Of a stretch of DNA of 64,000 nt, positions 12,901 to 52,500 are shown piece by piece. The notes beneath the pieces were generated by a model. That model had not been told where the DNA came from, made no database searches, and saw only the letters and a list, made by a program, of their open reading frames with translations. Source of the stretch: Nemertoderma westbladi (Eukaryota > Animalia > Xenacoelomorpha); the NCBI GenBank assembly GCA_032718475.1, contig JAUCBJ010002983.1, positions 1-64,000 on the forward strand, in the 5' to 3' direction. Made by a program: the position numbers and the translations under genes. Position 1 is the stretch's first letter. Each line of letters begins with the position of its first letter.

Positions 12901-14501
12901 CAATTGGTGTGTTGCGGAATAGTCAGTCCACTTGTTCTGAGCTCTCTGTTGAGTTGGAAGTGGTATGGTTTACAGAACCTCGGCTTAACAAATCACGTTG
13001 TTGCCTTTGATGGCGTTTTTGTCTGGCCTTAAATTCCTCCTCACGTTCATATTTGGACAGATCACGGTCTATATAATAGCACTCTCCATTTTTTACAAAT
13101 GATTTCATCGCAAGTATGGTGTTCGCATTTTCAATAGACCCGAAGGACAGTAGCAGGGGTCGTGCTGAACCATCCTCTCTGTGTTTATCCAGCCGGTAAA
13201 CACAAGTTACGACATTGTGTGATTTTACCAATCGAATCTCGAATGGATTTCTCGTCTATTTCATGTTGTTGTCTTTGTGAGTTAGCAGCATTGTCCCCAG
13301 GGAGTCATCTGATGACAACATTGCGTTTCCGTAAGTCGTTCTCATGAATTACCCTTTCTATTGTAATGTAAGTGTTGGGATTTCCTGTTGTTAGTGGCTG
13401 AGTGGGATGTTGTGTCGTCTTTTGCAGTTCCTTTACGGCCTTTGAATTTTTGCGAACAACTTCAATCCAAGTAGACGAGTTTTTGTCATTATGGTTGGTT
13501 CATTATCATCCAGTGAGGATAAGTCCTCATCTCTTTGGGACGCTACGTTGTGTACATCACGTTTGGTTGAATCACTTGTTTGCTGAATGTCGAGGTTCTC
13601 CTCTTCGAGTTTAGCGATTTTTACCACGGAACAGAAACCACAAGAAAACTTTACTTTCCCAATACTGCAATAGAGTGAGTTAGTGACTCTGTAGGAACTT
13701 CTATCTCAGTCCATGTTGACTTACAGAATGAACATTCGACATTTGTTTTTGTCCAGTTCATCGTTTTTGATTGGCGTCGGTTTGCAGCCACAATCTTCAT
13801 TGGATTGCCACCTGATTGTCTTCGTTGATCGCCTGTTGTAGCTTGGAGGTGCCATTAACTGTTAGTTTAATTCCGTTTTGTTGCACTGGGTGAGTTCATT
13901 GGTGTCCCCAGGCTCCGGTAGTACTTTGCCTTCCAAGGTTACACGGAAATACAGTCAGTCTCCCAAATCCAGTAATATATAATATATCAATCAAATGCAA
14001 TAATGCAATAATAATAGTGGTTCAGTAATATCGGTAGGCCTAAGCTACAGTATAGGCCAGGCCCTACTGTATATCAGTATCAGATAAAATAAGATTTTAG
14101 ATAATGAGGTACAGTCTGACAGTACCGGTAGAGCAGAATGCGATTTTAGCTCTTTTTCTTCACTCAATAAACTATCTTGCACTCCCTCAATTTCTTGTCT
14201 ATCAGGCTAAATGTTTGATGTAATAAACGTAATGCACGTAATGTCTCTCTGTCTGTTTGCGTCTGCATGTATGTATCTGCTGATATACTGTATATCGACT
14301 ATTGAGTAGGGGAAGGGTCCTTATCTGCCTATGAACTTTCGAAAGGTCAATATTATGAATCTACCTTACCATAGCAACTGGTTCTTATGATGGGTGGGTG
14401 ACATTGATTGCAAGGTGAATGCACCTACCCCCACGATATCGACGGGTTCCCTGAGTAAATACTAAATTATTGTTCATTGTTTATTATAATTGTCTTTAAT
14501 A

Positions 14502-14529
14502 CTCTCTCTCTCTCTCTTTCTCTCTCTCT
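14502..14529. repeat. (CT)n microsatellite, left boundary of the tandem duplication
   Basis: Seen directly. Confidence 0.9.
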
Positions 14530-14987
14530 AGATAGCCGATTGCTAGTTGTGCCGACGCACTATTTGTTCAGAGTTGTGCCCTTTCAGTGGGACTGATTAT
14601 TTGAAAATTGTGGTGACATCAATTCCTGTGCTACCACTAGGGGGTGTGGTGTATAATGTGAGGGTAATGTGAGGGAGTGTGATATTGCTTTTTCGTCTTT
14701 GGTTATTTATTGATATTAAGTTTCTTTGATTGTAGGCACAACTTGGTGTCCGTAAACATCATATATCGTGTATAATTGAGGGGAATAACAAATTGAATAT
14801 TTAAGATCGCGATGTTATATTATAGTGCTTTTAATGAAACATCGAATATCACTAATTTTTAATTGTATAAGTTGTTGAACAAATTATATGAATGCTGAAT
14901 GGGAAATTATTCTTATTATATTTTTATTATAAGGTGGTCGATAAAGCAATTTCCAGGCTCAATTTCTTTGTAAATGTATGGTCTCAG

Positions 14988-15185
14988 GAATTCTTGGCAT
15001 GCGAGTATTCTAAGCCCGTGGGTATTCTTAGCCTTGCATTCTTAGCCCATGGGTATTCTTAGCCCGCGAAACAATAACGTTTATTGTTTTGGTTCCCCCA
15101 GTACTCCTCTGAAACCTGCTCCTTTGCTAACCTGCTCCTTTACTAACTCGCGGGCTAAGAACACTCGCGGGCTAAGAATTCACCC
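14988..15185. mobile_element. MITE-like element with repeated inverted CTTAGCCCGCG / CGCGGGCTAAG motifs (second copy ~22720-22884)
   Basis: Tandem ATTCTTAGCCC repeats on the left face tandem GGGCTAAGAA repeats on the right. Confidence 0.5.
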
Positions 15186-17189
15186 AACAAATGTACTTGT
15201 TCAGAGCTGTGAATTCTACATTTCTTCTATATTGAATGTACAGCAAGCAGCAGGGCATTAGAAATTTGAATCATTGCTTCACGAAATAAAAGAAAAGGAT
15301 TATTGTAATATTTCGTTTTATTCCATATCGTAACATCCAATCTTTTAACACCCTATCTCGTATAATCATGCCTCCCCCATCTCGTAGCACGTAATGCATT
15401 ATTGTCAAAAATTTGCAAAATAAACTTGGTCTCTAATCCGATCTATAGACTCTTGGGTGTCCACAACGGTATTAGTACATATTATAACAACAGTTTGGCA
15501 ATAATAATTTGCTACAAGCGTGCAATAATAAATACAAAAGGGTGAGTACAAAACAAATACGCAAGACCCAAAAACTTAAGACCTGTACGAAACACATGTG
15601 ATAACTTTCGTTTATTGTTTTGGTTCCCCCAACTATGACTATGTAACCTGCTCCTTTACTAACCTGCTCCTTTAAATGCCAATGAGACCTAACGCTCTTT
15701 GGGACCTAACGCTACTTTACCTCTTAGTTTTGTACGTCCTTGGTCTTCGTTTTGTACTGACCCAGATACAAGAGCAGAAAACCAGCTATATCGTCCTGCT
15801 ACAACGTTACTAACTTCAGCAACTGTATCATAGACCTATTTGCCTTTAACACTGCGTACCAACACGGTACGAGTTCATCACACGTATTGTCACGACACGT
15901 ACTCGTGTTCATAATGATAATGCCGCCTTTAAATACTGTAATTATAACTTAACCCCCATGGCAGCAAAGTGCCACCTTTAGATATATATAATATTATCCT
16001 GATCCCCAGGGTAGCAGTGTTTCGCCTTTATATAATTATAACCTAACCCTCATGGCGGCAGAGTGCCGCCTTTACATATATTATCCTGACTCCCAGGGCG
16101 ACAGGGTGCCGCCTCTATTTAAAACCTCTTATGACTTTCTTATAACTATTGGGGCGGATAAATGGAGTTCATATTCGTGTTGTGCAGGAAAAACTGGTCT
16201 AGAAAAATTAATTTATTGCTTGGAGGGATTCCTATTGGTTTGATTAATTTTAAATTACATAGTTTGTGCAAATTAATTTCAATTTAGCCAATAATTATGT
16301 TACAAATGATTAAGGCTGCAGTGTGCCCCCCGGAGTTCAAATGAAAGATTTATAAATTTCGAAAATGGTTAAAGGCGGAATTGTGCCGCCTTTGAGGGTA
16401 GGATAAGTAATAATATGGTTATCCTCTTTACATATAACAACAAAATAATCCTTGGTACGATCAAATATACTTTCTTGGAAGTAAAAATTTACGTAATTTA
16501 TCTTTGGTACACAAAGAGCTACACTTTAATAATTTCTCGAGTTCTCGAGAATTTCGTTGCCATATTCGTAAACATGAAGATTGTAATGCTGTGATAGACA
16601 TAAGAGCATATTGCTTAAAATATATTAAATATAATATAAATATAATTTGCTATACAAATTTCTGGCTGCTTATATTGCATGCATATAGTCCAGCAAAATC
16701 AAATCAAGTCTGTTCAAGACTGTTCATATAGGAATAAGCAATCAAAGTGTAATCTATGTACCCCTTTCGATATCGCTTAATGCACTGATTCTTAATAATA
16801 ATATACAATTATTTCTTATATTTAATAAACTGTAATTTTATTAGGAAGAACTTTCACCTTTCTGTAATATACAGTAGTATTACTTCTAAGAATACACCTC
16901 GTTAGTAATAATAATGTTATAATTTTAATTAGATTGTTTACTCGGGTAAATGGGTGGCTTTTAATATAAATGCTATTTAATTATTTATTTAATACTAAAT
17001 ATTATTACCTTTAACAAAGGATGTTACCCAATACATGAAAACAATTTTTTTGCTTCAATCATGTCCTGATGAATAAAATATAAAAAAGTAGAAAGTTTCA
17101 TGGGTGGTGCTAAAAATTCTGGAACATTTAATACAAAAATCGACACACCGGCACTATTAATGGTATAGTACCCTATTAATTAAAAGTAT

Positions 17190-17472
17190 AAAGAGACAAA
17201 CATTTACTGATAATTAATAGGTAGAGAACTATAGAGAAACCCACCACACAGCACAAATATCAGTTAACAATTATAAAATAGAGTTAAGTACAGAAGAGGC
17301 GATGTAGATTAATTAGCTAGTTGCTGCATATGACGTTCCTATCCTGTCTGGCCTTATGGCAGCCCAGCACCATCTTCCAGTCCAAGCCCACTTCTCCATT
17401 TGATGCGTGACCCACGAACGCAATGGGATGCGCCTCGGATAAGGGCAAACTTGACTCTTGTCCTACTCTTAC
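17190..17472 (-). mobile_element. 3' remnant of an RLE-type (CRE-like) non-LTR retrotransposon (second copy ~24920-25196)
   Basis: Minus strand reads RTRVKFALIRGASHCVRGSRIKWRSGLGLEDGAGLP*. From recall, this resembles the R-x-R-L-S-F-A-x-x-R-x-x-x-x-C-x-R-G-S-R C-terminus of CRE-like elements of marine invertebrates. Confidence 0.6.
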
Positions 17473-17762
17473 TGTCTTACTCAGGTAAATTGGTTAGCGC
17501 AAATTTGCGGGATTTCCGGCATCGGGACCGGGATTATCACTCTCGGGATCCCGTCTGCGTAAAACTTAACTCTAAATAAACTTCAATAAACACTATATTA
17601 CGTAACTAACGGTCAAAAGTGAAAATATTCATAAACCACAATATTACATACAAAATAATAAACTATCTTAATTCAATTTAATACGATGCAGAGAGGTTCC
17701 AACCACGAAGACTATAACAGTCTACAGTACGAAACCAAGACTTCTCCATTTGGCTGAATATA

Positions 17763-18058
17763 TTGTCTGTTTTGGCAAGTATATAAATATACCTTGCCTG
17801 TTTTGGCAAGTATGTAAGTATGCCTTGCCTGTTTTGGCAAGTATATAAATATACCTTGCCTGTTTTGGCAAGTATATAAATACACCTTGCCTGTTTTTGC
17901 TAGTATATATATATACCTTGCCTGTTTTGGCAAGTATGTAAATGTGCCTTGCCTGTTTTGGCAAGTATATAAATACACCTTGCCTGTTTTGGCAAGTATA
18001 TAAATACACCTTGCCTGTTTTGGCAAGTATTTAAATATGTATTGCCTGTTCTGGTAAG
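17763..18058. repeat. 31-bp palindromic minisatellite CTTGCCTGTTTTGGCAAG-TATATAAATACAC (longer array at ~25498-25918)
   Basis: Seen directly. The 31-aa periodicity of the spurious ORFs equals three 31-bp units. Confidence 0.92.
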
Positions 18059-18409
18059 TATTTGAATTTGATAGAGTATATTATAAATATGATGGAAACT
18101 TCCTGTAAGTTTCACGTGTAAGACAAATGTTGAATAAATTATAAAACAAAATATTATTTTATGGCTTTTAACCTGGAGCAAAGAGTAAAGGAGGAGGACG
18201 CAGGAGGAGTAAACGAAATGTAATATGTCCTCTACTTAAAGTAATTGAATTGCCGTACTACTGTAATGAGACTTTCAAAGATTTTTGAGTCAAATTTTAA
18301 TAATATCTCGAAACAGGAAATGTCTACAAGGCAGGCCTACATCCTAAATTTGCATAGAGGATAAAACAAGCAGGAAACGAGCTGTATCAACAAATCAGGC
18401 TGATAATAT

Positions 18410-18650
18410 AACAAGTCAATTTATCAAGTCAAGTTAAGTTTGTCAAGTCAAGTGATGTCAAGTCAGTATGTCAAGTCGTATGGCGCCAAGTCAAACTACT
18501 ATCAAGTCACGTGATGTCAATCAAGGCATTAATTATGAAGTAATGTCGAGTCCAATGATGTCAAGTCAAGTGTCATAAAACCAAGTGATATCAAGTCAAA
18601 TAATTTAAATTGATAAAAAGTGTTGTAAAGTTAAGTGAAGTCATATACCA
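18410..18650. repeat. Degenerate (AAGTC)n low-complexity repeat (also ~26275-26520)
   Basis: Repeated gtcaagtcaagt motifs. Confidence 0.75.
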
Positions 18651-19764
18651 TCATGATAAATGACCATGATGTCTGTCACGGTTTTCTAATTATTGAAATG
18701 GCTTCCGTCAATTTGTTTCACCCACTGCATCGTACCCATCTTGTGAAATTCCACCATAAGAGGCAGGCAAAGAATCGCAAGTTTTCTTTGTTTTAGCTTT
18801 TCCAAGGCTCGTCATTGTTAAAATTGATTTCTAATATTAAGGGGACCATTATCTGATATTCATGATTCTGTATATAAAACAAGATTTTTCACAATTTCTC
18901 AATGTTGACATTTTCCACTGTCAATTTTTTTATTTTTGTCCAAAAAGTTTGAGTCTACTCTATATATAGCACCTCTATATATATATATATAACTGCAAAC
19001 TCAAAATATTATAAGTAAAAAATGTCAAACTGAAAAATGTTGTGTTTGGTTTGATAATTCTGAAGGTATACGGCTTTTCGATGTCGCTGAACAGGATGAC
19101 ACTAGTTATAAATATTTCTGGTATGTGCATGTGCAAATCCCATTTTGGTGCCATTCAAGTGCCCCAAAACGAAAACTACAAGTAGCACAAAATTATAAAG
19201 TGTTAAATTTTGACTTTGGTTATAAATATCTATACTGGTTTTCAAAGTCGCTGATTACTACGATATAACTCGTAAAAAATCATTCGTGCTAACGCAACTA
19301 TCATTTTTGCTGCTTGTCTGGTGGGACGGATAGATACGGATACTAGAAATATCCCAGGTATCGAAAGTATTAATTGCTATTGGTAAAGGTAAAATAGGAG
19401 TCCATAAGGGAAAAACATTTTCCGATATTGATATTGAATTAAGTGATGTTTTATCAGATGACAGGTTATGCCTTTCTGACTGAAAATTCTGAAATTGATT
19501 TTCTCACATTGCGAAGTTCTATTTATCCTTCGCAGCTAATTAATTAGCCATAGCCATTCCTGGCAAATCTGAAATACGAATAAGGCTAAATATTAGGCTG
19601 ATTAAGAGAACAAGAGTTCGTGCTCTTCTATTTAATTTATAGAATTACTATTTATTGTATTTTAGGTGGTAGCAGCAGCGGGGGACTGATACCTCCAGGT
19701 AAATTATAAATATCACGCGTAATTATATCCGTAGCTGTTCCCATAGTTGGTAGGTGCTAAAATG

Positions 19765-20058
19765 CACAACGAGCAACAATGACCAACAGCGAGCAACAAT
19801 GAGCAACAATGAGCAGCAATGAGCAATAACGAACAACAATGACCAACAGCGAGCAACAATGAGCAATAACAAGCAATAATAAAGTACAAGAACGAGCAAC
19901 AATGAGCAACAACGAACAACTACGAGCAACAATGAGCAACAACAAGCAATAATAAAGTACAAGAACGAGCAACAATGAGCAACAACGAACAACTACGAGC
20001 AACAATGAGCAATAACAAGCAATAATAAAGTACAAGAACGAGCAACAATGAGCAACGT
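19765..20058. repeat. AACAATGAGC-based minisatellite (also ~27005-27135)
   Basis: 10-bp core with longer compound units; it accounts for the AHCCSLLL spurious ORFs. Confidence 0.88.
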
Positions 20059-20072
20059 AATGCAATGTAATG

Positions 20073-20450
20073 ATATAATGAGTTAAGTGCCGTTATAGTC
20101 CGTTGGAATATCGTTATATAGCCAGTAGGAAAGTCGTTATATAATGAGTTAAGTGCCGTTATATAGTCCGTTGGAATATCGTTTTATAGCCAGTAGGAAA
20201 GTCGTTATATAATGAGTTAAGTGCCGTTATATAGTCCGTTGGAATATCGTTTTATAGCCAGTAGGAAAGTCGTTTTATAATGAATTACGTGCCGTTATAT
20301 AGTCCGTTGGAATATCGTTATATAGCCAGTAGGAAAGTCGTTATATAATGAGTTAAGTGCCGTTATATAGCCCGTTGGAATATCGTTATATAGCCAGTAG
20401 GAAAGTCGTTATATAATGAGTTAAGTGCCGTTATATAGTCCATTGGAAAA
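20073..20450. repeat. 68-bp minisatellite built from three 22-23-bp CGTTATATA subunits (about 10 units at ~27152-27870)
   Basis: GAGTTAAGTGCC recurs every 68 bp (20146, 20214, ...). Confidence 0.92.
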
Positions 20451-22140: not shown

Positions 22141-29609
<7,469 letters not shown>

Positions 29610-29690: not shown

Positions 29691-30329
29691 ATCGGCCTGC
29701 TACATTGAAACCGCACATTGAGATGCTATGCCAGCTTAACAAAAAACATTTTGTCACCACCATGCAAGTTCCACAATTGGCAACCCAATGCCCAGAGTGC
29801 ATTAAGAATGCTATGCCGTCTTACTGTATCAACAAAGTTACACAGCCACTACTCCCTATTTGTTGGGGGGTGGTGCAGGAGGTTTATCGCCCAGTTTAAA
29901 ATGTTGTTATAAATTAACGGTCAATATATTTCTCCCCGTTGGGGTATCGTCAGGACCAAATAGGATTCAAACTACAAAAGAGCAGTCCCTATGACCCTAC
30001 TACTGGTCCCTACTACTCCCTATGACTTTCGGAGGCGTCTCACGAAAGTCATGGGCTGTCCACCATGCTTATTTTCTCAATGGGGCTGACAAAGCACAAG
30101 ATTGTGCACAGTCTGGTTCTCACGGCGAAAACAATCCAAAGCAGAGGCGGCTTTGTTCTAGTGTCAAGCTTGGGGGGGACCAATGAGACACCCAATGTTA
30201 TATAGTGTATGGTTGGAGATGTGTACTGCATTGTGTAGTGCATTGTACTTCACACAGTGAAGTACAAGGAGTACAGATACATACAAATAATATAAAAACA
30301 AAAAAAACATACAAAAAAAATAAATACAA

Positions 30330-37385: not shown

Positions 37386-37924
37386 CAATTAAAAAGTGGT
37401 ATCTTAAACATGGGCGAACTATCGCGGCAGCATCAGTTTATCCTTGACATGACATGACATGATGATTGATTATCCTGACATGATAAAATGATGCGAAATG
37501 GCAATAAAATGATTTCATAGAATTAGACCTCATATAGTGAAACTGCGTAAGAAGCAACATGAATTTCGACCTGTATGTCGTCGAAGCAGAGGACCTGCCA
37601 TACTTATACTGCGTACTGCAAGCGCATACTGTACAGTATATACACATCAGAGTCCATATATCCAATCATTGATCATATCACTACATAACATTAAAATACA
37701 TACATATACAAATTAATACAAATTAATTATATATCATATTATAACATTAATCATTGATCAATCATCAAACATTGCAAACGGTAGATCTGTGCGGATGCGG
37801 ACATTGCGGGCGGAGAAATGCAAGGACAAACATTTTAAACGGACTCCCCTTACGTATATACGGCAAATTGTATGTATAATGTGTGTTAAATATAAATGAC
37901 AGCTTGCGCTGCGAGTTATCTAAC

Positions 37925-38305
37925 CTTCTTTATACTGTTGTGGACTATGTAATCCACTTCATCTCTGTATCCAGCCATTTGGAATCTGTAATTTTCTTCG
38001 ACTTTATCGTCCCATCGTCTGGGGCGCTGCATAGATTGGGGCCTTAACGTCGAATAATCCACAGAATCCTCGTCCGCTCCGGACGGGAAGTTAATAATCT
38101 CGCGTCTCGAGGCGTTCTGTTTCGAAGTTATTTTAGTTCCGTTTACGAAGTTTAGCTGGGGTCTCGGCCGTGTGACAATTCCGTGTTTACTTGTGTTTCT
38201 ATTGTGTCCGGAACCCCTAGCTTGTACGTTAACCACTTTATAGGTCGATGGATAGGATGTCATAGCAGGAAACGGTTGACGCCGGGCGGCCTCGGGGGTA
38301 GACAT
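37925..38305 (-). CDS. MEIG1: MEIG1 coding exon 1, with N-terminal extension
   Basis: RPQSMQRPRRWDDKVEENYRFQMAGYRDEVDY matches the MEIG1 core ([32 protein letters not shown]). The phase-0 donor AAG/GTTAGA at 37925/37924 joins exon 2 in frame, giving 171 aa. Confidence 0.9.
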
Positions 38306-38519: not shown

Positions 38520-38532
38520 GTTGCTAAGTAAC
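38520..38532. promoter_or_regulatory. Candidate RFX X-box GTTGCTAAGTAAC
   Basis: Fits GTTRCY-N-RGYAAC and lies 215 bp upstream of the MEIG1 ATG; MEIG1 is a flagellar/ciliary gene. Confidence 0.55.
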
Positions 38533-38545
38533 GGATATCAAACTT

Positions 38546-38560
38546 GGCGGCAATTTTGAA
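38546..38560 (+). promoter_or_regulatory. Candidate CDE/CHR element GGCGG-CAAT-TTTGAA
   Basis: GGCGG and TTTGAA with the canonical 4-nt spacer, oriented toward TUBGCP5. Confidence 0.4.
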
Positions 38561-39591
38561 TAGTTTCCCATTATTGGACAAACTTCAGAACTTCCATACA
38601 GTTAGTACTGCAGTACTGTACAGCTGTACTGCTGTACTGCAATACAGCAATACTGCTGTACTGGCAGACTGGATTGGACAAACTTCCATATCTGCCTATT
38701 ACAGTATTACCACTTGCCAGTCAGCTCGTACAGCAGTACCATTCCTTCAATCCCTCCCCTCCCCTCCCCCTGCAGCCCTGACCCCCCTCCTTCAAATTTA
38801 ACATTTTTTGCCAGTTCCTGTCTGCTATCTGTTAGTACCGCAACCGCAACTTGGCTACCGGCAGACCGGTACGCGGTACGGTACGGCAGTACGGTACTAT
38901 CAGATTACGGTATTAGGCCTACTGTATTATCTTATTATTACAGTATTATTCATTAATAATGATTCCAGGATTTTAATCTTATTAGACTGTTAGATTACTG
39001 GATTATAGAATAGAGAGTCGAATAATCTGATAATGATTTAGCGTTTACTGGTTTAGGCAGGGTTACTACACCCTACAAGACTGCAAGACCAGTCTGCCAG
39101 TTAGCCAGTTCATAGTCCTGTAGTCAGAAGTCAGATAGACTGATAGAGCCCTGGAGCCCTAGAAGAATTGACCTTCCGATCCGATTGCCATCTGCTATCA
39201 GATTAAAACAAATGTCAGATGAAATTGATAAGGCGTTTTTAAGTAGTGTTGAAGACTAGCCTATCAGTCGGAAATTCATAAAATACAAAATTTTACAGTA
39301 GGCCTACCGGTTACCAGTCAGCCAGTTACCGTTTGCCGTTACCGGCACCGGTACAGTATTTTTGCGAAAGATTTTTAATTGTTTTTGATAATCTGATAGT
39401 ATTGGTATTGGCTGATTGGCCTATCCCTAAATCTGTAGTACTGTAAATGGCTAATTTATGTAACATCCAACATTGACTTGCATTTATATTCACTACAATA
39501 ACGCTATTATCCCAGACAGCCAGAGGGCCAGAGCAGAATAACTTACCTGCTCACCTGAAAAAATCTACTTTCATATCTTTTGTAAAGGAAA

Positions 39592-42408
39592 ATGGCAGAT
39601 TCTACTTGGAACCAAATGCGAAATAAAGAGGCGAACAAACTCCTAGGAGAATTAGTTTGCCGATTAGCGAAACTCGATGTTGGTAGTCAGCGTTACACGG
39701 AGGTCTACGAATCGGTCACAGCCTGTCGGAAGTTCCACTCCTATATGTCGGTAGACCCGGGTAAAGTCAACGCGAGTATCGATGGAGTCGTCGATAAACT
39801 CTTCGTCCATGGTCTGGGGGAGCGGTCGAGGTGTTTGCGAAACCTCGTCGACTCCTTCCTCCACTCCTACTCGCTGCGATCTGCAACTCAGACATCCGTT
39901 CTAGAATCAGAGGTGCCCCACGCCGTATTAAGTTTTCTTCTGCGTCTATCGGGACAGCCGACCGTTCCCACGTTTCCTGACTATCCATTAACAAGGAACC
40001 TCGATGTTCCATCAGAGTCTGATGATATCGACTGGGGTCGGTACCTCCTGGACGGAGAGGATTGGTACGCAGGTTCGTCGTCCTCTGAATCCTCCGACTC
40101 GGATGAGTTTACCGACGATCGCATGGAAACCATTCCACAACGCGCGCAAATATTCCCAGTTGAAGATCCTAACGAGGTAACTATCGAAACTGAAAGTAAA
40201 CAGGATGTTAGTAGCTTATATAGCGAGTTGGATAAAGTAAATAAAGAACTCGACGGACTTATAATCCGCCCTTATTGGAAGGATATCGGTTGTTATAGCA
40301 ACCGGGAGTCGGTTGTTCCCTGGCTGCTTCCCGTCGGAAGTCCCGTAGAGAATCTCGTCACCGAGACTCAGATTGTTTCAGAGACTCTTTGGCTCCTCCA
40401 GGGACAGGCGTCGCTCTGTTGCTACGCGACCAGCGACTCCGGGGACCACGTGGTCCCGACCCCGGGACTCGTCGTGTCCCATTTAACCCGGGAGTCCCTC
40501 GCCGACCGTCTGGGATACTTCGCGGGTTACGGGACCGCATTGCAGCGAATAGGCGTGTTCGTTAACCAATCCCTAACGGGGGAATGTTCTAGAACGTATC
40601 AGGCGTTCGCAGCCGCTGTTAGCGGCGTCCTCCGTAGGAATAAACGGGAGATACATAAAGTAGAAGAACTTATTTGTATCGAGGGAAATAAACCTACTTT
40701 ATTATCTCTAAAGGAGAGTTTAGCTGACTGTTTAGACCGGCTGGATTTATTGCAACGGATTTATATTGAAGGGATTGCGAATAATACATTGAGCGACAAC
40801 GTGTGTCGGTCTAACAACCTCCTACGGGTGCTGCACTCCCATCTGGTCGTCGAGGACTCTCTCGGTCGCCGCCACTCCCGGCAGTACCTCCTCCTGCTGT
40901 CCCTCCTTGTCGCCACCCTCCGTCCGTATCTCGAGATCCTCGACGGCTGGGTGTCCGACGGGCGGCTGGTCGACCGCCACCGGGAGTTCCCGGTGGCGAG
41001 GCGACCGGAAGTCGGTTGCAAGTCCCCGGGGTTCTGGGATCGCGGCTACCAAGTCTACGCGAGGACTTCCGGCGGCCGGAAGGAGCGCGCGGAAGGCGGT
41101 TTACTTGTCCCGGAGTTCCTACTTCCGGTCGTTGATAACATGCTGATTGCGGGGAAGAGTAGCGAGTTGTTTAACGTCGTCTGGTTGGAGGGGTCCGGGG
41201 GGGAGGCGAGGGGGGCGGTCGGTAGGGGGCTGCACGGGAAGTTCGTAACGTCATTACGGGAAGTGTTAGGACTGACGTCACTACTGGAGGAACTGGAGGT
41301 GGCGTCATTACCGGAGGAACCGCTGGGAGGAGTCGAGGGGCGGACGGAAGGGGATCGATTGATGGAGATACATTTCGCGTTGCTAAGTAACCCGGGGACG
41401 ACGCATCTGATCCGTGATGACGTCATTGATGTAGGTTTATGTGACGTCACTAAGTATAATCATTACACCGCGTCCCAAGTGTTCCGACACTGTCTGTACC
41501 CGCACGTATGGTCGTTGTACGACGCCTCCTCACGGCGGTTACTGTCCGCACTGTCCGACAGCTACGCGTTGTCGGACCATCTCCGTTTCGTACACTCGAT
41601 TTACTTTCTGTCCGACGGGTTGTCCGACTTCCTGACCGACTTGTTCGACAAGCTGCTGCGCGACCGACAGGGCTGGCGGGACGTCGCCTATCTGAACGGT
41701 CTGCTGTCGGACTGTCTGTCGGAGCGGCACTGCAGACGGATGGTGGACCTGACGTACGTGAGCGTGGAGGAGCAACTCGATACAGACGAGGAGTTGGCCG
41801 CAATGAAGATTCATTATCTACCGCCGTGGCCCGTTTCTTTGCTTATAAACGCCGAAACTGAAAGTAAATATCAGGTTATATTTACCGAAATACTTCAACT
41901 AAAATTGGCTAAATACAGTCTGGAGTCGTTGAGTTTCGGCGACCTCGTGGTCTCCAGGCGGGGTATCCGTGGCAACGTGGTCCACAGGGTTTTGGTACTC
42001 AGAGTTCGTCTGCTGCATTTTATCAATAGTTACCATAGTTACTTGTTATCTAGGATATATTACGGGGAGTGCTCGCGGTTGCTAGGAGACATGGAGGCGG
42101 TGAGCGATGTAGACCAGTTGCTAGGGTTACATTGGGAGTGTCTGCGGGTAGTCGGGGAGTTCGCTCTGCTCCCCAAGGCGGTTGAGCCAGTCCATCGAGC
42201 CATCCTGAAGCTCGAGCGACTGGCAATGAGCCTCGCTCGGCGATGGAGGATGGGTCCCTCTGCGTTTACCTACGACCTCATGTCGCAGCTCGAGGACCGT
42301 TTCGATAAACTATACGAGTTCCTTTGCTTGTTTCTCAGTCGGGCTGTTCGTAAAGGTAGTTTACCTCACCTAGAAGGTCTAGCAGTTCTCCTAACGACGG
42401 ATCGTTAA
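39592..42408 (+). CDS. TUBGCP5: Gamma-tubulin complex component 5, 938 aa, single coding exon
   Basis: GCP5-specific motifs DIDWGRYLLDGE, LVTETQIVSETLWLL, RTYQAF, PYLEILDGW, PWPVSLLI and a C-terminal GSLPHLEGLA. Uninterrupted ORF. Confidence 0.93.
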   Translation: MADSTWNQMRNKEANKLLGELVCRLAKLDVGSQRYTEVYESVTACRKFHSYMSVDPGKVNASIDGVVDKLFVHGLGERSRCLRNLVDSFLHSYSLRSATQTSVLESEVPHAVLSFLLRLSGQPTVPTFPDYPLTRNLDVPSESDDIDWGRYLLDGEDWYAGSSSSESSDSDEFTDDRMETIPQRAQIFPVEDPNEVTIETESKQDVSSLYSELDKVNKELDGLIIRPYWKDIGCYSNRESVVPWLLPVGSPVENLVTETQIVSETLWLLQGQASLCCYATSDSGDHVVPTPGLVVSHLTRESLADRLGYFAGYGTALQRIGVFVNQSLTGECSRTYQAFAAAVSGVLRRNKREIHKVEELICIEGNKPTLLSLKESLADCLDRLDLLQRIYIEGIANNTLSDNVCRSNNLLRVLHSHLVVEDSLGRRHSRQYLLLLSLLVATLRPYLEILDGWVSDGRLVDRHREFPVARRPEVGCKSPGFWDRGYQVYARTSGGRKERAEGGLLVPEFLLPVVDNMLIAGKSSELFNVVWLEGSGGEARGAVGRGLHGKFVTSLREVLGLTSLLEELEVASLPEEPLGGVEGRTEGDRLMEIHFALLSNPGTTHLIRDDVIDVGLCDVTKYNHYTASQVFRHCLYPHVWSLYDASSRRLLSALSDSYALSDHLRFVHSIYFLSDGLSDFLTDLFDKLLRDRQGWRDVAYLNGLLSDCLSERHCRRMVDLTYVSVEEQLDTDEELAAMKIHYLPPWPVSLLINAETESKYQVIFTEILQLKLAKYSLESLSFGDLVVSRRGIRGNVVHRVLVLRVRLLHFINSYHSYLLSRIYYGECSRLLGDMEAVSDVDQLLGLHWECLRVVGEFALLPKAVEPVHRAILKLERLAMSLARRWRMGPSAFTYDLMSQLEDRFDKLYEFLCLFLSRAVRKGSLPHLEGLAVLLTTDR

Positions 42409-42797
42409 ACCTGCGGACACACAGTCACACAGATATATTTTACTACTTATTTTTGCATGTAATGTATATATTAATGTAATAATGTAAATTCTACGTTAAT
42501 GTAAGACACTCTATACAAAATTCTAGAATTTTGAATAAGAAGAGTGTGACTAAATTTTCAGAGTAAATTTCTAGGTTTAATTTTGTTTTAATTACTAGCT
42601 ATTTCTTATAGTCCTATACCGCTGTGGTTCTGATTTTAACATAAAAAAAACAAACCTAATAATTTTAATTAATTTATTCTAATTAATATTGCTATTTGGC
42701 TTTTTGATAATAAGAAATATCAAGTGAAATCTATTGAAATAAAGTCAGAACTGAATACTGGAATATCAATTATTAAGGGAATTGTTTTGAGAGAACC

Positions 42798-44003
42798 ATG
42801 TCTCAGAAAGACTCGACTGCTGCCGGGGGGAATGGACGTCGCACTAGTATCGGATCTAAAAAAGATCCGGTGAGCAAGAACTCGACGAAACGGCCGTCGG
42901 TGGCGGTTCTACCGGAAGAAATCGAAGTCAGCTGTTCGGGAACAACGTGTGACACTGCTGTGGTATGTATTACGAAAACCTCCATAGACTTCAACAAAGT
43001 GCAGTTTTATTGTGGCCAGTGCTCCGCCAGACATATATCCCGACTAACGGACGGAATAACAGAGATGGAGTCTCGTCTACAAGCCGAGATCGATAAAATC
43101 TCACAAGTAGCCAACGACGCGAAGCAATATAAAGACTGTATGGATCGGTTGCGGTCTTCGGTAAATACTTCTATTAAATCAATGCGCACAGAATTCAACG
43201 ACGAAATCGACGATATAAAGAGCGAAGCTCAAAAAACTGTAGACGAGATGGTAACTATTAAAGAAGTGTTATCGGATGAATCATCCACTGAAATCCAGGA
43301 AGTCGACTCTTCGTGGGCCACCATAGTTCAGCGAAAGCGCAAAAACGTTGTTGACCCAGAGAAGAAGAATTCCTACGCCGGGGTAACCATCAGCAGGAGC
43401 ATTCCTGTAGTAGCTATTACACGGGAGGTACAAAACGAAACCCGCTTACAAACTGAGAGAATGGACAACCTCGTAATATCAAGGATATTCTCTCCTGACG
43501 CGATTAGCGATAAAGATACTGTTGTCGATATCGCGGCCGAAGTAGGGGTGGATTTGTCTGAGGGTATCGTCAGTCTTAAACGAATAAAGGTACCTGCAGC
43601 TGGTTCCGGTGATACCCGAAAGAAAATGATAGCGACTCTGAATCCTGATAAGCGCATACAACTACTAAAAGCAGCAAAAAAACTAAGGAACTCGGAACGG
43701 TTCAGGACAGTCTATATAAATCCCGATTACACTCGCGCCCAAGCCCACGAGCAGTACGTGCTTAGAATAACTCTAAAAAAGAAGCGCTCAGAGGAACCTA
43801 ACAAACAATGGGTCATATATCGCAACAACATCATCGAACGGGCGGCCGTAGACTCCACCAACGCTGTCGCTAGACCAACTACTGGTAATATCTCACGAGC
43901 AAACTCACACGTAGTACCTACATCCCCATTTGAACTTGACGGAGTGCATACACGAGTTATTCGTCGCAGTGAACATCAACACAATTCGGAACGTGGAGAT
44001 TGA
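42798..44003 (+). CDS. LINE ORF1 (Cys-rich N-terminal region, coiled coil, L1/CR1-type ORF1 C-terminal region)
   Basis: CSGTTC...FYCGQC, a heptad-rich segment, NLVISRI and KKLRNSERFRTVYINPDYT. Confidence 0.85.
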   Translation: MSQKDSTAAGGNGRRTSIGSKKDPVSKNSTKRPSVAVLPEEIEVSCSGTTCDTAVVCITKTSIDFNKVQFYCGQCSARHISRLTDGITEMESRLQAEIDKISQVANDAKQYKDCMDRLRSSVNTSIKSMRTEFNDEIDDIKSEAQKTVDEMVTIKEVLSDESSTEIQEVDSSWATIVQRKRKNVVDPEKKNSYAGVTISRSIPVVAITREVQNETRLQTERMDNLVISRIFSPDAISDKDTVVDIAAEVGVDLSEGIVSLKRIKVPAAGSGDTRKKMIATLNPDKRIQLLKAAKKLRNSERFRTVYINPDYTRAQAHEQYVLRITLKKKRSEEPNKQWVIYRNNIIERAAVDSTNAVARPTTGNISRANSHVVPTSPFELDGVHTRVIRRSEHQHNSERGD

Positions 44004-47000
44004 CTGGATGTTTCAATAGTTAATGATAAGGACAGGGACTCCAATTTATTGGTTAATGTTAAATCTGTTAAGAAATCCGGAGCTACTTCAATTATTCCCG
44101 TAAAGGAAAATATACCCAGTTCACAGTTTGCTAATGATAAAGATATTGAGTCCTGTTTAACTTTAAAGATGCCAATGTCCCCAAAGACAACTGTGCTTCA
44201 GGATAATGTGTTGTGTTTTACCGCTGTTAATGTTAACGGAAATAATCAGAGGTCTACGCCACCAAGGAAAACTATGTTTAATGATAACATGTCGTGTTTA
44301 ACCATTAGGTCAATGTCCCCAAGATTAACTACGGTTAATGATAATGTGTCGTGTTTTACCGCTGTTGGTGTTAATGAAAATGATCAGGGGTCAATGACCC
44401 TCCCGGGCCTCCCCCCTTCTGCGGTTACCAGTAAAATCAGTATATTACTGTATAATGCACAGTCTGTGAACAACAAAGCAGAATTTATTAAAGACTACAT
44501 TCTGGAGAATACCATTGATATAACTGCCATCACTGAGACTTGGTTGACAGGTACAATCCAGGATCATGTGGTCATAAATGATATCTGTCCTAGGGGTAGC
44601 TCTATAAAACACATTCCAAGAACCAGAACAAGAGGCGGTGGCGTGGCCTGTATCCATCGCGACTCCCTGAGCATGAAGGTCAGTCCTTCTGATGGTTCAA
44701 CATATCCAACCTTTGAGTACATGGAGCTGACCCTACGCCACTCGGGGTCCTTAATTAGGATATTCATTATATACCGGACCTGCCCAAGCCCAGCTAACGG
44801 TTTCACATATACACAATTTCTAGACCAATTTGCCGATTTGCTTCAGAATCTGATAACTTCCTCCGGTAGGCTAATTATAATTGGCGATTTCAACTTCCAT
44901 GTTGACAACAATTGCAATGCGGAAGCCTGCAAATTTCTCGAGATTGTTAGCTGCTTCGGACTCACACAGCATGTAGAGGAACCAACACATCGACACAGAC
45001 ACACCCTTGATCTGATCTTAACCTACTCTGAGGACTTGCAACTCGTTGATAATATTTGTGTACATGACATTGGGCTTTCTGATCACTTCGCAGTCAGCTT
45101 TAATTTGAACTTGTCAAAGCCTCCACTAGTACCCTGTGTGACATCCTACAGAGATACGAAATCGACTAACTGGTGTGACCTTCGCACTGATATTGAATCA
45201 TCACTATTATGCCGATGTCCTGCAACGAATGTCAATGAGTTATCAAGGCAGTACAATGACATTCTATCGTCCCTCTACGAACTTCACGCACCACTTGTTG
45301 AAAAGTGCACGAAATCTCAGCCCATGGCAAAGTGGTACAATAATTCAATAATGGAGGCTAAAAGGAAGCGAAGGAGACTCGAGCGCCGGTATAGAAAGAC
45401 TCAACTTCAGATAGACTGTGATGCTTACAGGCAACAATGTAATGTCGTGGCACAGCTATTAATATCAACAAAAGAGAAATTATACAGGGGTATTATTGAT
45501 TCAAACATTGGTGATAATAGAAAGCTCTTCTCAGTGGTTGACAAAATTCTTCACCGTAAAAGTAATGTCCTACCGACTCATGACTCTGCATATGAGTTAG
45601 CTGAAAGGTTTGCAGTCTACTTCGACAAAAAGATTGAAAATATTCGCGATGAAATGCTGGGTGTTGATATCGAACTTCGACAAAATCTGCCAAATCAGAC
45701 TATGAACTGCGGAAGTGCTGAATCTGAGGTTGGGGCCAAGGTAGCCCCTGATGAAGAGTATTGTAGCCCAACTGACTCTCAATTCTCTTTTTCAGTACCA
45801 AAACTTGATCACTTCGAGGAAATATCAACTGATGATGTCGCCAAGCTTATCAAAGATTCAAAACCCAAATCCAGTCCCCGTGATCCACTCCCTACACATA
45901 TTGTGAAGCAATACCTTACAACTCTCTTAAGTGTCATTACAATGATAATTAATTTATCACTCACAACTGCTACATTCCCATCATTATTTAAAGAAGCTGT
46001 GCTCAATCCCATTATCAAGAAGCTACGCCTTGACCCCGAGATACTGAAAAACTTTAGACCTGTTTCAAACCTCTTGTTCATTTCGAAGTTAGTTGAAAAA
46101 GCTGTTGCAAACCAACTGATGCTCCATCTGAACTTACATAATCTACACGAGCCTATGCAAAGTGCCTATAGACCATTCCATGGAACCGAAACTGCACTCC
46201 TTAGGGTCAGCGATGAGATTCTGAGGGGAATTGATGATGGTTGTGCAGTACTGTTAATAATGCTCGATCTCAGTGCTGCATTTGATACTGTCGAACACAG
46301 TATCTTATTAAATACTCTGGAACATGAGATCGGCATTGCAGGGACAGCACTAGATTGGTTTCGATCCTACTTGTTGGGCCGCTCACAACATGTACGCATT
46401 AACAACTCATATTCTCAACCTCAGCAATTAAGATACGGCCTCCCACAAGGATCAGTACTTGGCCCAATACTATTTACTATTTATACACGTTCACTCGCAA
46501 ATGTGATAAGGAAATACGGACTGTCCCTACATCTCTACGCAGATGATACTCAAATATACATAACATTTAAGAAATCAAACCTGAATGATGCAGTGGATAT
46601 CACTGAAAAGTGCCTTTCCGAAGTTCGAGCATGGATGGACTCACATCTTTTAAAGATGAACTCAGATAAGACTAAAGTGGTCATGCTGCAGTCGCAATTC
46701 GGTAAACAAGTTGAATCCCCGCACGTGATAATCGGTTCCGAGACTATTGGTTGTAGCGCAACTGCGCGTAATATCGGTGTTGAAATCGATTCTCATCTGA
46801 CACTCCGCAAGCACATTGGAATTACTGTCAGAGAAGCATTCTATCACCTCAGGAATCTTGGAAAAATTAAGCGCTATTTATCCAAAGATAATCTTGAGAT
46901 TTTGATTCATGCGCTTGTCACAAGTAAATTGGACAACTGCAACTCCCTTTATTACGGTCTTCCGACTGATTCCATTAAAAAGCTACAATATGTGCAGAAC

Positions 47001-47384
47001 TGTGCGGCGCGTCTTTTAGTTGGTCTCAAGAAAAGTGACAGGCAACGAATGACCCCTGTACTAATGCGACTACATTGGCTTCCAGTGCAACGTCGGATAG
47101 ACTATAAAATTGCTATGATTACCTACAAGTGTCTGAATGGAACAGCACCAGTATATCTGCGAGATCTACTGTCACCCTACACGCCCTCCCGGTCACTGAA
47201 GTCATCCCACTAGGAACTGCTGGTGATCCCTAGATTCAACATGGTGCACTACGGCAAGCGCGCTTTCTCAGTTGCTGCCCCGACTATTTGGAACAAACTG
47301 CCAATCAACGTTCGACAATCACCAACCATCGCGGTTTTTAAGTCGAGGCTAAAAACACACTACTTCCACCTGGAGTACGAGTAA
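44004..47384 (+). pseudogene. LINE ORF2 (APE plus RT) with one premature TAG at 47211-47213
   Basis: YNAQSVNNK, ITETWL, GDFNFH, TLDLIL, LSDH, NFRPVSNL, LDLSAAFDTVEH, PQGSVLGPILF and YADDTQIY. After the TAG the frame continues for 56 codons of conserved L2 C-terminus to TAA 47382-47384. Confidence 0.92.
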
Positions 47385-48489
47385 ATCTGCATAATCATGT
47401 TCACACGATGTTATCAATGTCCGTTTTTAATTAAACTGTTTTTATCTAATTTTTTAGCAATCCTACATTTTAACAGTGCCATGCGCCTTGCTCTTAATTT
47501 AGGAAAGGCGCTATATAAATATTTTAATTATTATTATTATTATTATTATCTATATATGTGGCCCTACTTCCTTTAATTGAATTAAACATAAATCCCTTAT
47601 TACTTTATAAAGACGATTCTATTATCTATCAGCTGATTATTAATTAGGTTCCGTCTGCGTTTAATTCTTCAGATAAAATAGTATTAGTAGGGTATTCGAG
47701 AAAAAATAGATATAACTTTCTAGTCGCTCGTTTCGTTTCGGGAATTTAGATTTTCTTATGCCTTTCGTGTATTGAGTTTTCACTCAATGACGTGTTTTAA
47801 GTAAATAGAAAGTAGAAACTCAGTACACTTGGACAGGACAGAATATCTGAATTTCAGTCAATCGAAATTTGTGACGAAAGTCGAACTTTCCGATATTTTT
47901 TCTTTATCGAAGACATTTTTTCATCTGGCATCACATTTATGAAACCAGCAATATTGCTCCCCTGGTTTATGAAATATTGAATGTTGGGGGCCAATTATGA
48001 AAAATTTGCATTTTTAACAGCGATTTTGAATAGGAAAAAATAATAAACTAATTGTACGAGGAGTTGAATGAAATCGTTCCGCGCAGAATGAGAATCAACT
48101 AAATACGTTGAAATGGTATGAAAAGTTGAGAATCTTATTTTAATTAATTTAATTTAGTCCGCGTTGCTTATAACTGAAGATTCAAAATTTGAACTTTCGT
48201 ATAATTGTAAAAATCCACGATACGTAATCACATCATTTATCACTGAAATACGACTTTTGGGCGATGAAATCTCGTTACATTTTGTTCGTATGGGTTGCAG
48301 AGTAATATTTAATTTATTTCATTTATCTTTAATTAATCATAATTTTTAATCTTAGTTTGCTATCATATTTTTATTAACTTCTTATACATTAACATTTAGC
48401 TGATCGGTTTCTCTTTGCAATAGTTTTGTATATGATTACGATCTGCAAACAGACAAATATTAGTCTGAGTCCGTCAACTTTACGCGCCG

Positions 48490-49434
48490 ATGGCGTCAAT
48501 GCGACTGCTGACTGTGGTTATTGGAGGGGGGACGGGTTTCATTGGTTCCGCCCTGACCAAAGCGTTAAGAAAACAGGGCCATCGGGTGATAGTGGTGTCC
48601 CGTAGAAATGGGAACAAAGTTCAATTGGACAGGATGTCCTGGACCGAGGTCCAATGCAACGGACTACCTCCTTGCGACGCGGTTATCGGACTACAAGGCG
48701 CCAACGTTATGTCATCCAGATGGAAGACGGTAGTAGACAGTCGCATTCCGACCACTAAGCTACTGGCCTCCGCCATATCGAGATTACATACGCCCCCTAG
48801 TGTGTGGATTTCGGCGTCTGCTATAGGATTCTACCCGCCGAGTTTAACCGCTGTTTACGATGAGGAATCCTCCGGGGGTCATGGCAACCCTTTCGCCGAG
48901 TTGTGCGCCGCGTGGGAGGCGGCTGCTAGGCTACCAGAAAGGGTCGACATCCGCGAACTGACTGCCGAGGATACGAGCATCACCCTGCAGAAACCGCGGA
49001 CGAGACAGGTAATTCTCCGTATCGGTATGGTCCTGGGTCGGGATGGGGGTCTGCTCCGCTCCATGGGGGTCCCCTTCCGTCTGGGTCTGGGCGGGCGGAT
49101 CGGATCCGGATGTCAGTACTTCTCCTGGATCCATCTCGGGGATCTCGTCGATTTGATGGTCTTCGCGTTGGAGCGGGATTCCGTGGACGGGGTTCTGAAC
49201 GCGGTGGCCCCGGGCGTTGCGACCAACGCCGAGCTAACGCGCGCGTTAGCAGCGGCGGTACGACGACCGGCGTTCGTACCGGTACCGGAGTTCGTTGTGC
49301 GACTAGTGTTGGGTCCAACACGCGCCGCCGCTGTGCTACAGGGACAGAATGTTGCTCCTAAACGCGTCAGCGCCTTGGGTTACGAGTTTACTTACGGGAC
49401 TATAGGTAGAGCCCTTAAGGATTTGTATTTGTGA
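48490..49434 (+). CDS. SDR39U1: Epimerase family protein SDR39U1 (TIGR01777-like), single coding exon
   Basis: Rossmann motif GGGTGFIG, GLPPCDAV, SAIGFY, LRIGMVLGRDGG, FRLGLGGRIGSGCQYFSWIH and GVLNAVAP. AATAAA lies at 49438-49443, just after the stop. Confidence 0.93.
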   Translation: MASMRLLTVVIGGGTGFIGSALTKALRKQGHRVIVVSRRNGNKVQLDRMSWTEVQCNGLPPCDAVIGLQGANVMSSRWKTVVDSRIPTTKLLASAISRLHTPPSVWISASAIGFYPPSLTAVYDEESSGGHGNPFAELCAAWEAAARLPERVDIRELTAEDTSITLQKPRTRQVILRIGMVLGRDGGLLRSMGVPFRLGLGGRIGSGCQYFSWIHLGDLVDLMVFALERDSVDGVLNAVAPGVATNAELTRALAAAVRRPAFVPVPEFVVRLVLGPTRAAAVLQGQNVAPKRVSALGYEFTYGTIGRALKDLYL

Positions 49435-49526
49435 GACAATAAAATATTATTGTATTGCGTCACTTAAATTTCATTGAGTTTTTGAGATCTGGGCGAGCCA
49501 TGTAGTGAGTAAAGCCCTATTGGCGT

Positions 49527-52500
49527 TTATGTTAATTCGTTCATTATGTGGCGATTCCTTTGATTAGTGGATCTCCAGACGTTAGACTTGAAGGCTGGCC
49601 CCAATATATACCCTTGACCTGAGAAGTTATTATCCCTTTCCGTTCGAAAATTGCGGTAGAGTTCTAATGCGGCTGGGTTGATAATATTGGGATACTGCTC
49701 ACATATATCTTCGGTGAGGGTTTTGCAGTTGGTAAGGTTGTGAGCCAGGGTAGACGATGCGTTTGTCGGAAGTGATAATAGGCGTTTTAGAAAGGTAGAT
49801 TTAATTTTATCCAGTTCTTTAAGATTTGAGACTGTCAAATGTGGAGCTATTTCCGGGAAAGCGTAAGTTACGGCGGGGTATATTTTCATTTTGAAGATTT
49901 TTACACCAGTTTTGATAGAGACGAGGTTCAGATTTCTCAAGCAGCCTATTAGAGTGTAGGACCGTTGTTTTTTATTCTCAATGTGTTGGGTAAAGCACAA
50001 TGTAGGTTGTAGAGTGACCCCTAGGTAGGTGTACCGGTTAGTTACCTATTTCTATTGGGAGGCCCCCGTATTTGAACACATCACTTAGCCAGTCTTCCAC
50101 CACGCCGAAATTTGATAACTTTTGTTTTATCTAAATTTACATGCATTTTATTTAGTTTACACCACTCATATAGTTGATCTAGCCCAGCTTGGATAGCTTC
50201 TTTTTCTGTAGAATAGAGAACAAGATCATCTGCGAAAAATATAAATAGTAGTGCCGATCCTATACGTCGGAGTAAAGTCGAGAGATCCGCAATAAACATG
50301 ATGAAACCAGTTGGTGAAAAACAGTCACCTTGTAGTATTCCACGTAATTGGACTATTGGTGAAGAGTATTTAATACCATCATAGATTTTAACAGAGTTAT
50401 TAAAGATTGCCCGAATAAGTTGAAATAACTTCCCTTTTATTCCAAATTGTGTGTACATCTTATACAGCAATATATTTCTATCGACCAAGTCGAACGCCTT
50501 ACTGAAGTCAACAAAGACGGCATATACCGGTTTGGAGTTAGTATTATGCACAGTGACATTTACTATTTACAAACTCTATGAATTTCTTAAGTGCCTGCCT
50601 CGTCGACCGCCCGGTAATGAACCCATATTGCTCTGTGGGTAACATAGTCTTTATCTTGGATATAACACGTGCATTTATCATTGATGTAAATATCTTCAAA
50701 AGTACACATATCATGGCCACCCCCTATAGTTTCCGGGGTCACTGTAGCTACCCTTGCCTTTATATAATATTTTTATAATGCTGGTCTTCCAAATCTGGGG
50801 AATGTAACTCACATTCAGACATGTGTTGAACAATAACACTAGGATGGTGATCATGTAAGGTATCACTTGCTTGAAATGTTCATAGAACAGACCATCTGTG
50901 CCGCAAGCTTTCCCATTTGCTGTTCTGTTGATGGCGTTGTTCACCTCTGTTTCACCGAACGGCTGATTATACCAATCGTCCGATTCGTTTTCACCTGGTA
51001 CCGGTGTGAAAAATGGTTGATTTGGTGGTGATTCTGGTGATGTTTCGTTTTGGCCGATAAGAGTTTCAAAATGCTGTTCTAGAATTTTCAGATCTATTGG
51101 AGCTACAGTTGCGACCCTTGCATCTTTCCACAATGACCAAGGGGTTATCTCGGATTGGCGGAGTCTGTTTAGTAGAAGCTCTTCTTTATGTGCTAACATT
51201 TTAACTTTGATAAGACGCTTATATTCTTTCCGAAGAGACCAATAACCTGTAACATTATTGGAGTAGACACGCTGTTCATGCAGGATTGACATGAGTTCAC
51301 GTTTCTTCGACTTGCACTCGTCATCGTACCAGGGTTGATGATGAGAGCGGGATTTATGGTGCTTCTGTGAAGCTGCTGAGATTGTGTTGTTGATATTATC
51401 AACCGCTGTATCTATTTCACCTTCGAGCAGATAGGAAATGATATCATTTTTTCGGAGTTCTTCTTCTAGGATATTAGTGTTTAACTTTCGTGATAGTTGA
51501 GGAGCTGGTTTATCAATATACTCGTTGTTAAAGGCTATAACAATATGTAAATCAACCCGTTGGTGTTTACGAATTGGGTGTAATCTAATAGTTACAGACG
51601 ACGCACGCACCTCAATGTCTGAGGGGACGCGTGTGTAATAGAGATCGATGGTGCTCGTTCCTTGTGGAGAATAGTAAGTACACTCTGAAGATTTGTTTTG
51701 CACCGTAAATCCCAGGATTTGCAGGTTGGTCCTGAGGTCAGTTCCGCGGGTTCCAGTTGCTCTGTCGTCGATTCGACAATTAAAATCACCTCCAAGTATA
51801 ATCGGTACTTCAGGATTAGTGAAGGTAAGCGCCTCGCTGATAGAAAGCAGAATATCCTCTATACTTGTCTCAGGGTTAAAGTAAAAAGCTAGTATGTATG
51901 CAGCATTCGTTCTAAGAACTAAGTAATTGTCAGTTACGGCGATTTCTTTTGGAGAGAGTTCAGGTTTAGCAAGGATTACTAGTCCGCCCTGAGGTCGGCC
52001 CCTTCCTGAATTCCGAGCAGATTGCACGTAAGAGTAAAATCCAGGGAATGAAAACTCTTTTTTGCAATAAAATATCTCAGTTAACAAAAGTAGGTCTGCC
52101 TCCCCAACTACTTCCCGATTACTTAGTGTTTCATGAACATAATTCAACCCTTCTACATTCCAAAGCGCGAGTTTTAGTGATCGCATCGGTGTTTGTTCGG
52201 AGTCTGAGGTACATTGCACATCGGAAACTTCGGTAAGGGGGGATGAACCCGTAGCTTCTACATTCCATAAGCCGATAGGGAGTTGCCGTCAATCATTTTG
52301 CTCGACTGCGGCAGATTGTTGAACATTGCGTGAGGGTCGACTTCTGTAGCCAAATTGGGCGCGTTCCAGATTGCTGAGATGGTAGTTCTTTATTAGTATC
52401 CCATCATCCCATATCTCAGGATTCATTAAAGCGGTGCGGTCACAAGAACAACCGCGCATGGTTTCCACCATATAATTTGCTCCACAACAACCCCGTTTCA

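Follow-up and report, generated by a model that had tools for sequence, protein, structure and literature searches.

A 64,000-nucleotide stretch of the Nemertoderma westbladi genome (assembly GCA_032718475.1, contig JAUCBJ010002983.1, positions 1 to 64,000; hereafter the window) carries three long interspersed nuclear elements (LINEs), labelled CR1-like, L2-like and RTEX-like, in each of which the second open reading frame (ORF2) lies in the same frame directly behind a TGA followed by C. This TGA-C junction is a real, conserved feature. Its best reading is probably programmed, context-driven UGA readthrough, which would yield a fusion of ORF1 with the apurinic/apyrimidinic endonuclease (APE) and the reverse transcriptase (RT) of ORF2. 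Judged from the sequences, readthrough would be the simplest joint account of the frame, the identity of the stop, the C at position +4 and the constrained linker without a start codon.

The junctions read GAC TGA CTA in the CR1-like element (minus strand, stop at 12925-12923), GAT TGA CTG in the L2-like element (plus strand, 44001-44003) and GAT TGA CGG in the RTEX-like element (minus strand, 52291-52289), exactly as the initial annotation had given them, and the first APE strand follows in the frame of the stop after 225, 150 and 43 codons, respectively. Pfam matches to Exo_endo_phos and RVT_1 were obtained in all three elements, in agreement with a profile scan, so that ORF2 is an APE followed by an RT. 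The labels CR1, L2 and RTEX come from the same annotation and presumably fit, as judged by motifs. The elements are arranged as follows.

CR1-like element:
12926..13216, minus strand: 3' part of the broken ORF1, of the same ORF1 family as in the L2-like element
12920..12925, minus strand: junction stop TGA and CTA, read in the window sequence
12248..12922, minus strand: linker of 225 codons, Pro/Thr-rich and repetitive, in frame with the APE start, with a TAG at 12862-12860
9399..12247, minus strand: decayed APE and RT, spread over several frames

L2-like element:
42798..44000, plus strand: ORF1, 401 open codons, with a coiled coil and a C-terminal domain common to 311 library proteins
44001..44006, plus strand: junction stop TGA and CTG, retained in collapsed family contigs from three runs
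44004..44453, plus strand: linker, 150 open codons ahead of APE, with in-frame ATGs at codons 56, 58, 91, 96, 104 and 131
44004..47384, plus strand: ORF2 (APE, RT), with a copy-specific TAG at 47211-47213, terminating in TAA ATC

RTEX-like element:
52292..52440, minus strand: pre-stop stretch of about 49 open codons, presumed end of ORF1; beyond 52440 the window copy diverges from the family contigs
52286..52291, minus strand: junction stop TGA and CGG, retained in collapsed family contigs from three runs
49530..52288, minus strand: ORF2 with a 43-codon linker (one ATG, at codon 35), APE and RT; copy-specific indels are absent from the family contigs

The L2-like ORF2 is open from 44004 to 47210 (1069 codons) and is the sole clean copy among the three elements; an (ATT)n tail lies near 47525-47550. 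The CR1-like copy is decayed, with ORF1 broken and the TAG falling at codon 21 behind the junction. A six-frame profile scan of the window returned three APE starts, two matches to the ORF1 family and no further ORF1/ORF2 junction; RT-only fragments were also seen near 30300 and 36200. The RT pieces of the three elements are only about 29% identical pairwise, so the elements are distant from each other, and they form separate long branches in the RT tree.

The C behind the stop is found in all three window junctions and in all 19 in-frame relatives described below. Among TGA triplets at large, C comes next in 16-23% of cases in the window and in 20% in the loci of the relatives; its presence at the three junctions is more than chance. 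Only two host stops could be read, TAA ACC in GCP5 and TGA GAC in SDR39U1. The latter sits two residues past a complete DUF1731 domain, therefore TGA functions as a stop in this genome, as the annotation had held. Its ORF1-TGA-ORF2 layout stands for the L2-like and CR1-like elements, where the ORF1 family was matched (the last 100 codons of the CR1-like ORF1 with E 3e-8 by profile), and is only presumed for the RTEX-like one, whose pre-stop stretch gave no match in Pfam, Atlas (best 0.83), the ORF1 profile or a protein search; a search of viral contigs yielded no relatives. The CR1-like (12926-13860, minus strand) and L2-like (42798-44000, plus strand) elements share this ORF1 family despite their RT divergence, which fits PMC4120745, whose title speaks of reticulate evolution of ORF1. 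The RTEX-like linker (52159-52288, minus strand) contains a short copy of the first-strand motif of APE, GLWNVE before ALWNVE, perhaps a small duplication.

Whether these stops are lesions of single copies or traits of their families can be judged from public contigs aligned to the window, taken from three runs (two samples, two studies, one of them possibly the window's source) and covering the L2-like and RTEX-like junctions, not the CR1-like one. The L2-like junction is spanned by contigs of depth 224, 428 and 112, which show five or six differences to the window copy, none of them at the stop or at +4 to +6. Among the matches listed, the RTEX-like junction is spanned by contigs of depth 123, 249 and 95 without gaps and with the junction unchanged, the three differing letters all falling in APE (52010, 52021, 52074); a more distant RTEX-like subfamily aligned to APE only. 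The contig of the single gene SDR39U1 has a depth of 28, 30 and 24 in the same runs. The family contigs are thus 4-14 times deeper and are read here as collapsed from several copies, in keeping with two multi-copy families. These runs also provide an internal control: they have a sense codon at the TAG of 47211-47213 and are free of four indels of the RTEX-like copy. Since the family contigs retain the TGA yet are without the other lesions of the window copies, the junction stops are not copy decay, and the check proposed earlier, whether the TGA, the frame and the +4 to +6 bases hold within families, came out positively for the L2-like and RTEX-like families.

To place the junction in a wider set of elements, relatives were collected with the L2-like ORF1, for which 311 proteins were found at E <= 0.001; an alignment of eight of these retrieved loci from metagenomes (62) and from genomes (2). 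Grouped at 80% identity and with the window elements set aside, they form 33 families, of which L064 was dropped as not being a LINE. Among the remaining 32, the junction was unreadable in four (L021, L025, L033, L052), one was stopless (L031), 19 were in frame and eight out of frame, each family being represented by one unbroken copy chosen by inspection; L014 and L040, in which a TGA CTG lies upstream in the APE frame without being the ORF1 stop, were classed as out of frame. Frameshifted or early-stop copies of L002, L027 and L035 retain, where readable, a TGA-CT that is in frame with APE. Of the 27 families whose junction can be read and carries a stop, 19 are thus in frame (binomial 9e-5 against 1/3).

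Of the 19 in-frame families, 18 end ORF1 with TGA and one with TAG (TAG-CTA); +4 is C in 19/19, and +4+5 is CT in 15/19, whereas the backgrounds at other stop triplets of the same loci are 0.44, 0.20 and 0.06 for TGA, C and CT. The codon after the stop is CTA in ten families, CTG in four and CAG, CAT, CGC or CTC in five; TGA-CTA as a whole occurs in 9/19, and no position beyond +6 is fixed. Out-of-frame families behave otherwise: TGA-C is present in 18/19 in-frame and 0/8 out-of-frame families (Fisher 4e-6), so among these relatives TGA-C is specific to in-frame junctions. Because the families share ancestry, these p-values are optimistic. The in-frame state appears on long separate branches of the APE tree (built without L039 and L063) and the RT tree, which requires at least three state changes, with long-branch warnings. 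With the window included, UGA is the stop in 21/22 in-frame junctions. Together with the family contigs, the contrast of 18/19 with 0/8 lends sequence support to the core proposal of the annotation, an ORF1-APE-RT fusion made by readthrough.

The linker behind the stop is informative as well. Fourteen of the 19 in-frame families lack any ATG from the stop up to the first Asn of APE; of the remaining five, two have an ATG just 1-2 codons ahead of this Asn and three have a usable one, and of the sister families L019 and L029 one has the ATG and the other lacks it. Over 640 linker codons there are 0 stops in frame versus 36 and 80 in the other frames. Between sister families the length of the linker is retained and the substitutions are mainly synonymous, with an in-frame pN/pS of 0.40 (five sister pairs), or 0.32 in the four pairs without an ATG in the compared stretch, versus 0.68-0.73 and 1.38-1.61 in the shifted frames (0.68 and 1.61 for these four pairs). 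These open, low-pN/pS, ATG-less linkers indicate that protein-level selection acts on the codons directly after the stop although no start codon leads into them. The earlier caveat that in-frame ATGs exist upstream of APE is thereby eased for most relatives and stands for the window, where the first in-frame ATG behind the stop is at codon 19, 35 or 56 in the three elements. None of these overlaps or closely follows the ORF1 stop, as the AUG does in translation of the SART1/L1 type. The family contigs lack the first linker ATG of the L2-like element (codon 56, 44169) and have the next, two codons on, unchanged.

The out-of-frame class may have its own route. ORF2 is in the +1 frame in 7/8 of these families, and at or near the ORF1 end CCN TTT C(G/A) is found in four and a GTT TAG C end in one of L007, L024, L039, L040 and L011, sequences which presumably resemble the sites of +1 frameshifting in influenza PA-X and in closteroviruses. 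It is possible that this class represents a second recoding route, +1 frameshifting, to the same fusion. In the single copy of L031, ORF1, including a Cys-rich finger-like stretch, runs into APE without a stop; in the APE tree this copy is sister to families of the +1 class, and its state is either a natural fusion or a copy-specific change.

Some traits of the junctions are of separate interest. An Asp codon before the stop, offered earlier as a common feature, occurs in 0/19 in-frame relatives, and 12/150 ORF1 homologues end in Asp; as a general signal it is rejected, and its occurrence in 3/3 window junctions may be chance or a host trait. A motif of the form LxPxAxxF, presumably akin to PAM2, which binds PABP, was counted close to the junction in 12/19 in-frame families (L003, L004, L008, L018, L019, L026, L029, L030, L032, L046, L054, L056) and 3/8 out-of-frame ones (L011, L024, L040), by a loose pattern with no computed null. 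It starts four codons past the stop in L032 and L056 and is absent from the three window elements, and a full-text search brought up nothing relevant. The in-frame TGA CTA junction of L063 lies on a short contig in an archaeal genome bin and is probably eukaryotic contamination.

Under readthrough, most ribosomes would halt at UGA-C and release the ORF1 protein, and perhaps a few percent would decode UGA and continue into an ORF1-linker-APE-RT fusion, one RNA thereby giving much ORF1 protein and little fusion. The UGA would be decoded by a near-cognate tRNA, which for this codon may be that of Trp, Cys or Arg, and which would set the inserted residue. The six-base context would have to suffice without RNA structure, and the fusion, processed or not, would have to be the active enzyme. 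The gag-stop-pol elements compared below are long terminal repeat (LTR) elements, whose own protease cuts the polyprotein. No protease domain was reported by Pfam in the LINE ORFs studied here, hence the fusion may stay whole.

Several observations weigh against this mechanism. Local folding revealed no stem-loop behind the stop in windows of 60, 100 or 200 nt: at 100 nt the mean z was +0.20 (22 junctions), and at 60 and 200 nt 0/21 junctions reached z <= -2. PMC13517186 describes a stem-loop as required in UGACGG viruses and variable for UGACUA. An in-frame UGA junction in Candida Tca2 gave no readthrough in a reporter, according to PMC2194720. Long fused ORF1-ORF2 proteins of 703-2005 residues were looked for and none was found, the tests being weak. 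The relatives all belong to one ORF1 family, come from possibly few hosts and include no RTEX-like element, and all three window linkers carry ATGs.

The main rival is termination-reinitiation: ribosomes would end translation and start anew at the stop or shortly behind it, on an AUG if present or else on a non-AUG codon, a route that has been proposed for L1, and ORF2 would be a separate protein. Reinitiation is known for L1 and SART1, as the annotation had stated, and the L1 ORF2 is described as reached by an unconventional, AUG-independent route (PMC5972666, PMC5009743), so a missing ATG is no proof of readthrough. An open, constrained linker is equally expected if initiation occurs right at the stop, CUG stands directly behind it in the L2-like element and in 4/19 relatives, and both the window ATGs and the lack of a detected stimulatory structure favour this rival too. 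It leaves unexplained, however, the strict frame, the use of UGA over UAA and the invariant +4 C; the post-stop codon is CTA in ten of the 19 relatives and CAG, CAT, CGC or CTC in five, all poor start codons, and the out-of-frame families, barred from readthrough, are without the context altogether. We regard reinitiation as unlikely.

Other explanations appear less probable still. TGAC may be a DNA or splicing signal overlapping the ORF1 stop, with ORF2 made from a separate message by an internal promoter or splicing; it looks like the core of a branch point and like an AP-1/CREB half site, and a minor promoter is described in the Tca2 junction (PMC2194720). Such a signal has no need to sit on an in-frame ORF1 stop, though, most linkers lack an ATG, the stretch directly behind the stop is constrained as protein, and the purine before TGA in 14/19 is unlike the branch-point consensus; this explanation is very improbable. 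Slightly less credit is due to recoding of the UGA by selenocysteine insertion or by A-to-I editing to UGG: the near-exclusive use of UGA would suit it, yet one family has TAG-CTA, there is no duplex around the stop, the site lies within a variable linker, and no selenocysteine insertion sequence (SECIS) or other Rfam match was obtained in the window at gathering score. Decay of one fused ORF, or mere coincidence in the three elements, has hardly any probability left. CGA-to-TGA is a common mutation, all three window copies bear other lesions, and the CR1-like junction stood outside the family check, but the family contigs, which keep the TGA and lack the other lesions, and the recurrence of one stop in the same context between an ORF1 tail and APE in 19 families have largely refuted it.

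Programmed readthrough has relatives among known systems. In Paramecium UGA is the only stop, while here three stops are possible, and selection has held the one used, with its +4 C, across several lineages. For the Group 3 non-LTR retrotransposons of Paramecium tetraurelia, in which ORF1 and an APE-RT ORF2 share one frame across an in-frame stop as they do here, read-through was suggested by its authors (Guerin et al. 2017, PMC5405496), so the idea had already been raised for a ciliate LINE group. According to the same source, the sister groups rely on a +1 shift or on reinitiation, which may also hold for our out-of-frame class; Group 3 is, however, a separate ciliate clade, and the available passages give no stop-context analysis or test.

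The annotation's statement that UGA-CUA and UGA-CGG are viral readthrough contexts is confirmed by PMC13517186, which lists UGACUA and UGACGG as type II hexamers with UGACUC and UGACGC as variants. Sindbis virus, Venezuelan equine encephalitis virus and Colorado tick fever virus carry UGA-CUA or UGA-CGG before a polymerase or an extension (PMC13517186), and similarly the single in-frame UGA of the window elements is followed by CTA or CGG in two cases and by CTG in one; in the relatives, the frame directly behind the stop is open and constrained. The LINEs differ from type II viruses in being cellular retrotransposons, in showing no detected stem-loop and in also using CUG, CAG and CAU. Moloney murine leukaemia virus (MoMLV) employs UAG and a pseudoknot for gag-pol, as given in PMC13517186; like MoMLV and Tca2, the LINEs place a structural ORF and an RT ORF in one frame across one stop, which would set a high-to-low ratio of products. 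With L1 and SART1 they would share a bicistronic RNA and low ORF2 output, and they would differ in making a fusion, since L1 uses termination-reinitiation over a 63-nt spacer and SART1 an overlapping stop-start, neither yielding one (PMC5972666, PMC5009743).

A full-text search, with subscription papers and Repbase Reports outside it, found no paper on a conserved UGA-C junction in animal LINEs, which does not establish its absence from print. A term search of PMC4120745, PMC11203168 and PMC2734521 gave nothing on in-frame junctions, and none of the papers searched contained an experimental demonstration of readthrough in any LINE.

The surroundings of the elements may be noted briefly. By themselves, the types of genes and elements in the window would suggest an invertebrate animal as host. 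The L2-like insertion is flanked by a GCP5-like gamma-tubulin complex component gene (39586-42408, plus strand) and the SDR39U1-like gene (48469-49434, plus strand), each one uninterrupted ORF, which makes them intronless host genes or retrocopies. An exon-like piece at 37916-38305 (minus strand) matches Pfam Meiosis_expr (MEIG1-like) at profile positions 1-29 of 75, and tandem minisatellite arrays at 17700-18100, 25400-26100 and 52900-53800 yield long spurious ORFs.

How the second LINE protein is synthesised has been resolved in only a handful of elements, each time as a form of reinitiation. If the proposed readthrough is true, a large LINE group relies on retrovirus-like recoding. We would advance only tentatively the broader suggestion that a gag-pol-like strategy has an old origin and a wide distribution among CR1/L2-group LINEs of animals and has re-arisen in, or spread to, RTEX-like elements; ORF2 would then be made only as an ORF1 fusion through structure-free UGA-C, and lineages might repeatedly exchange readthrough, +1 frameshifting and plain fusion for one another without giving up the fused product. 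If readthrough operates, ORF2 annotations beginning at the first ATG would be wrong or truncated for these LINEs, retrotransposition constructs would require the native junction, and the activity of the elements would be tied to the termination fidelity of the host. If ORF2 is made only as a fusion, the tether between ORF1 and the enzyme would be a part of particle building, with no protease to part them.

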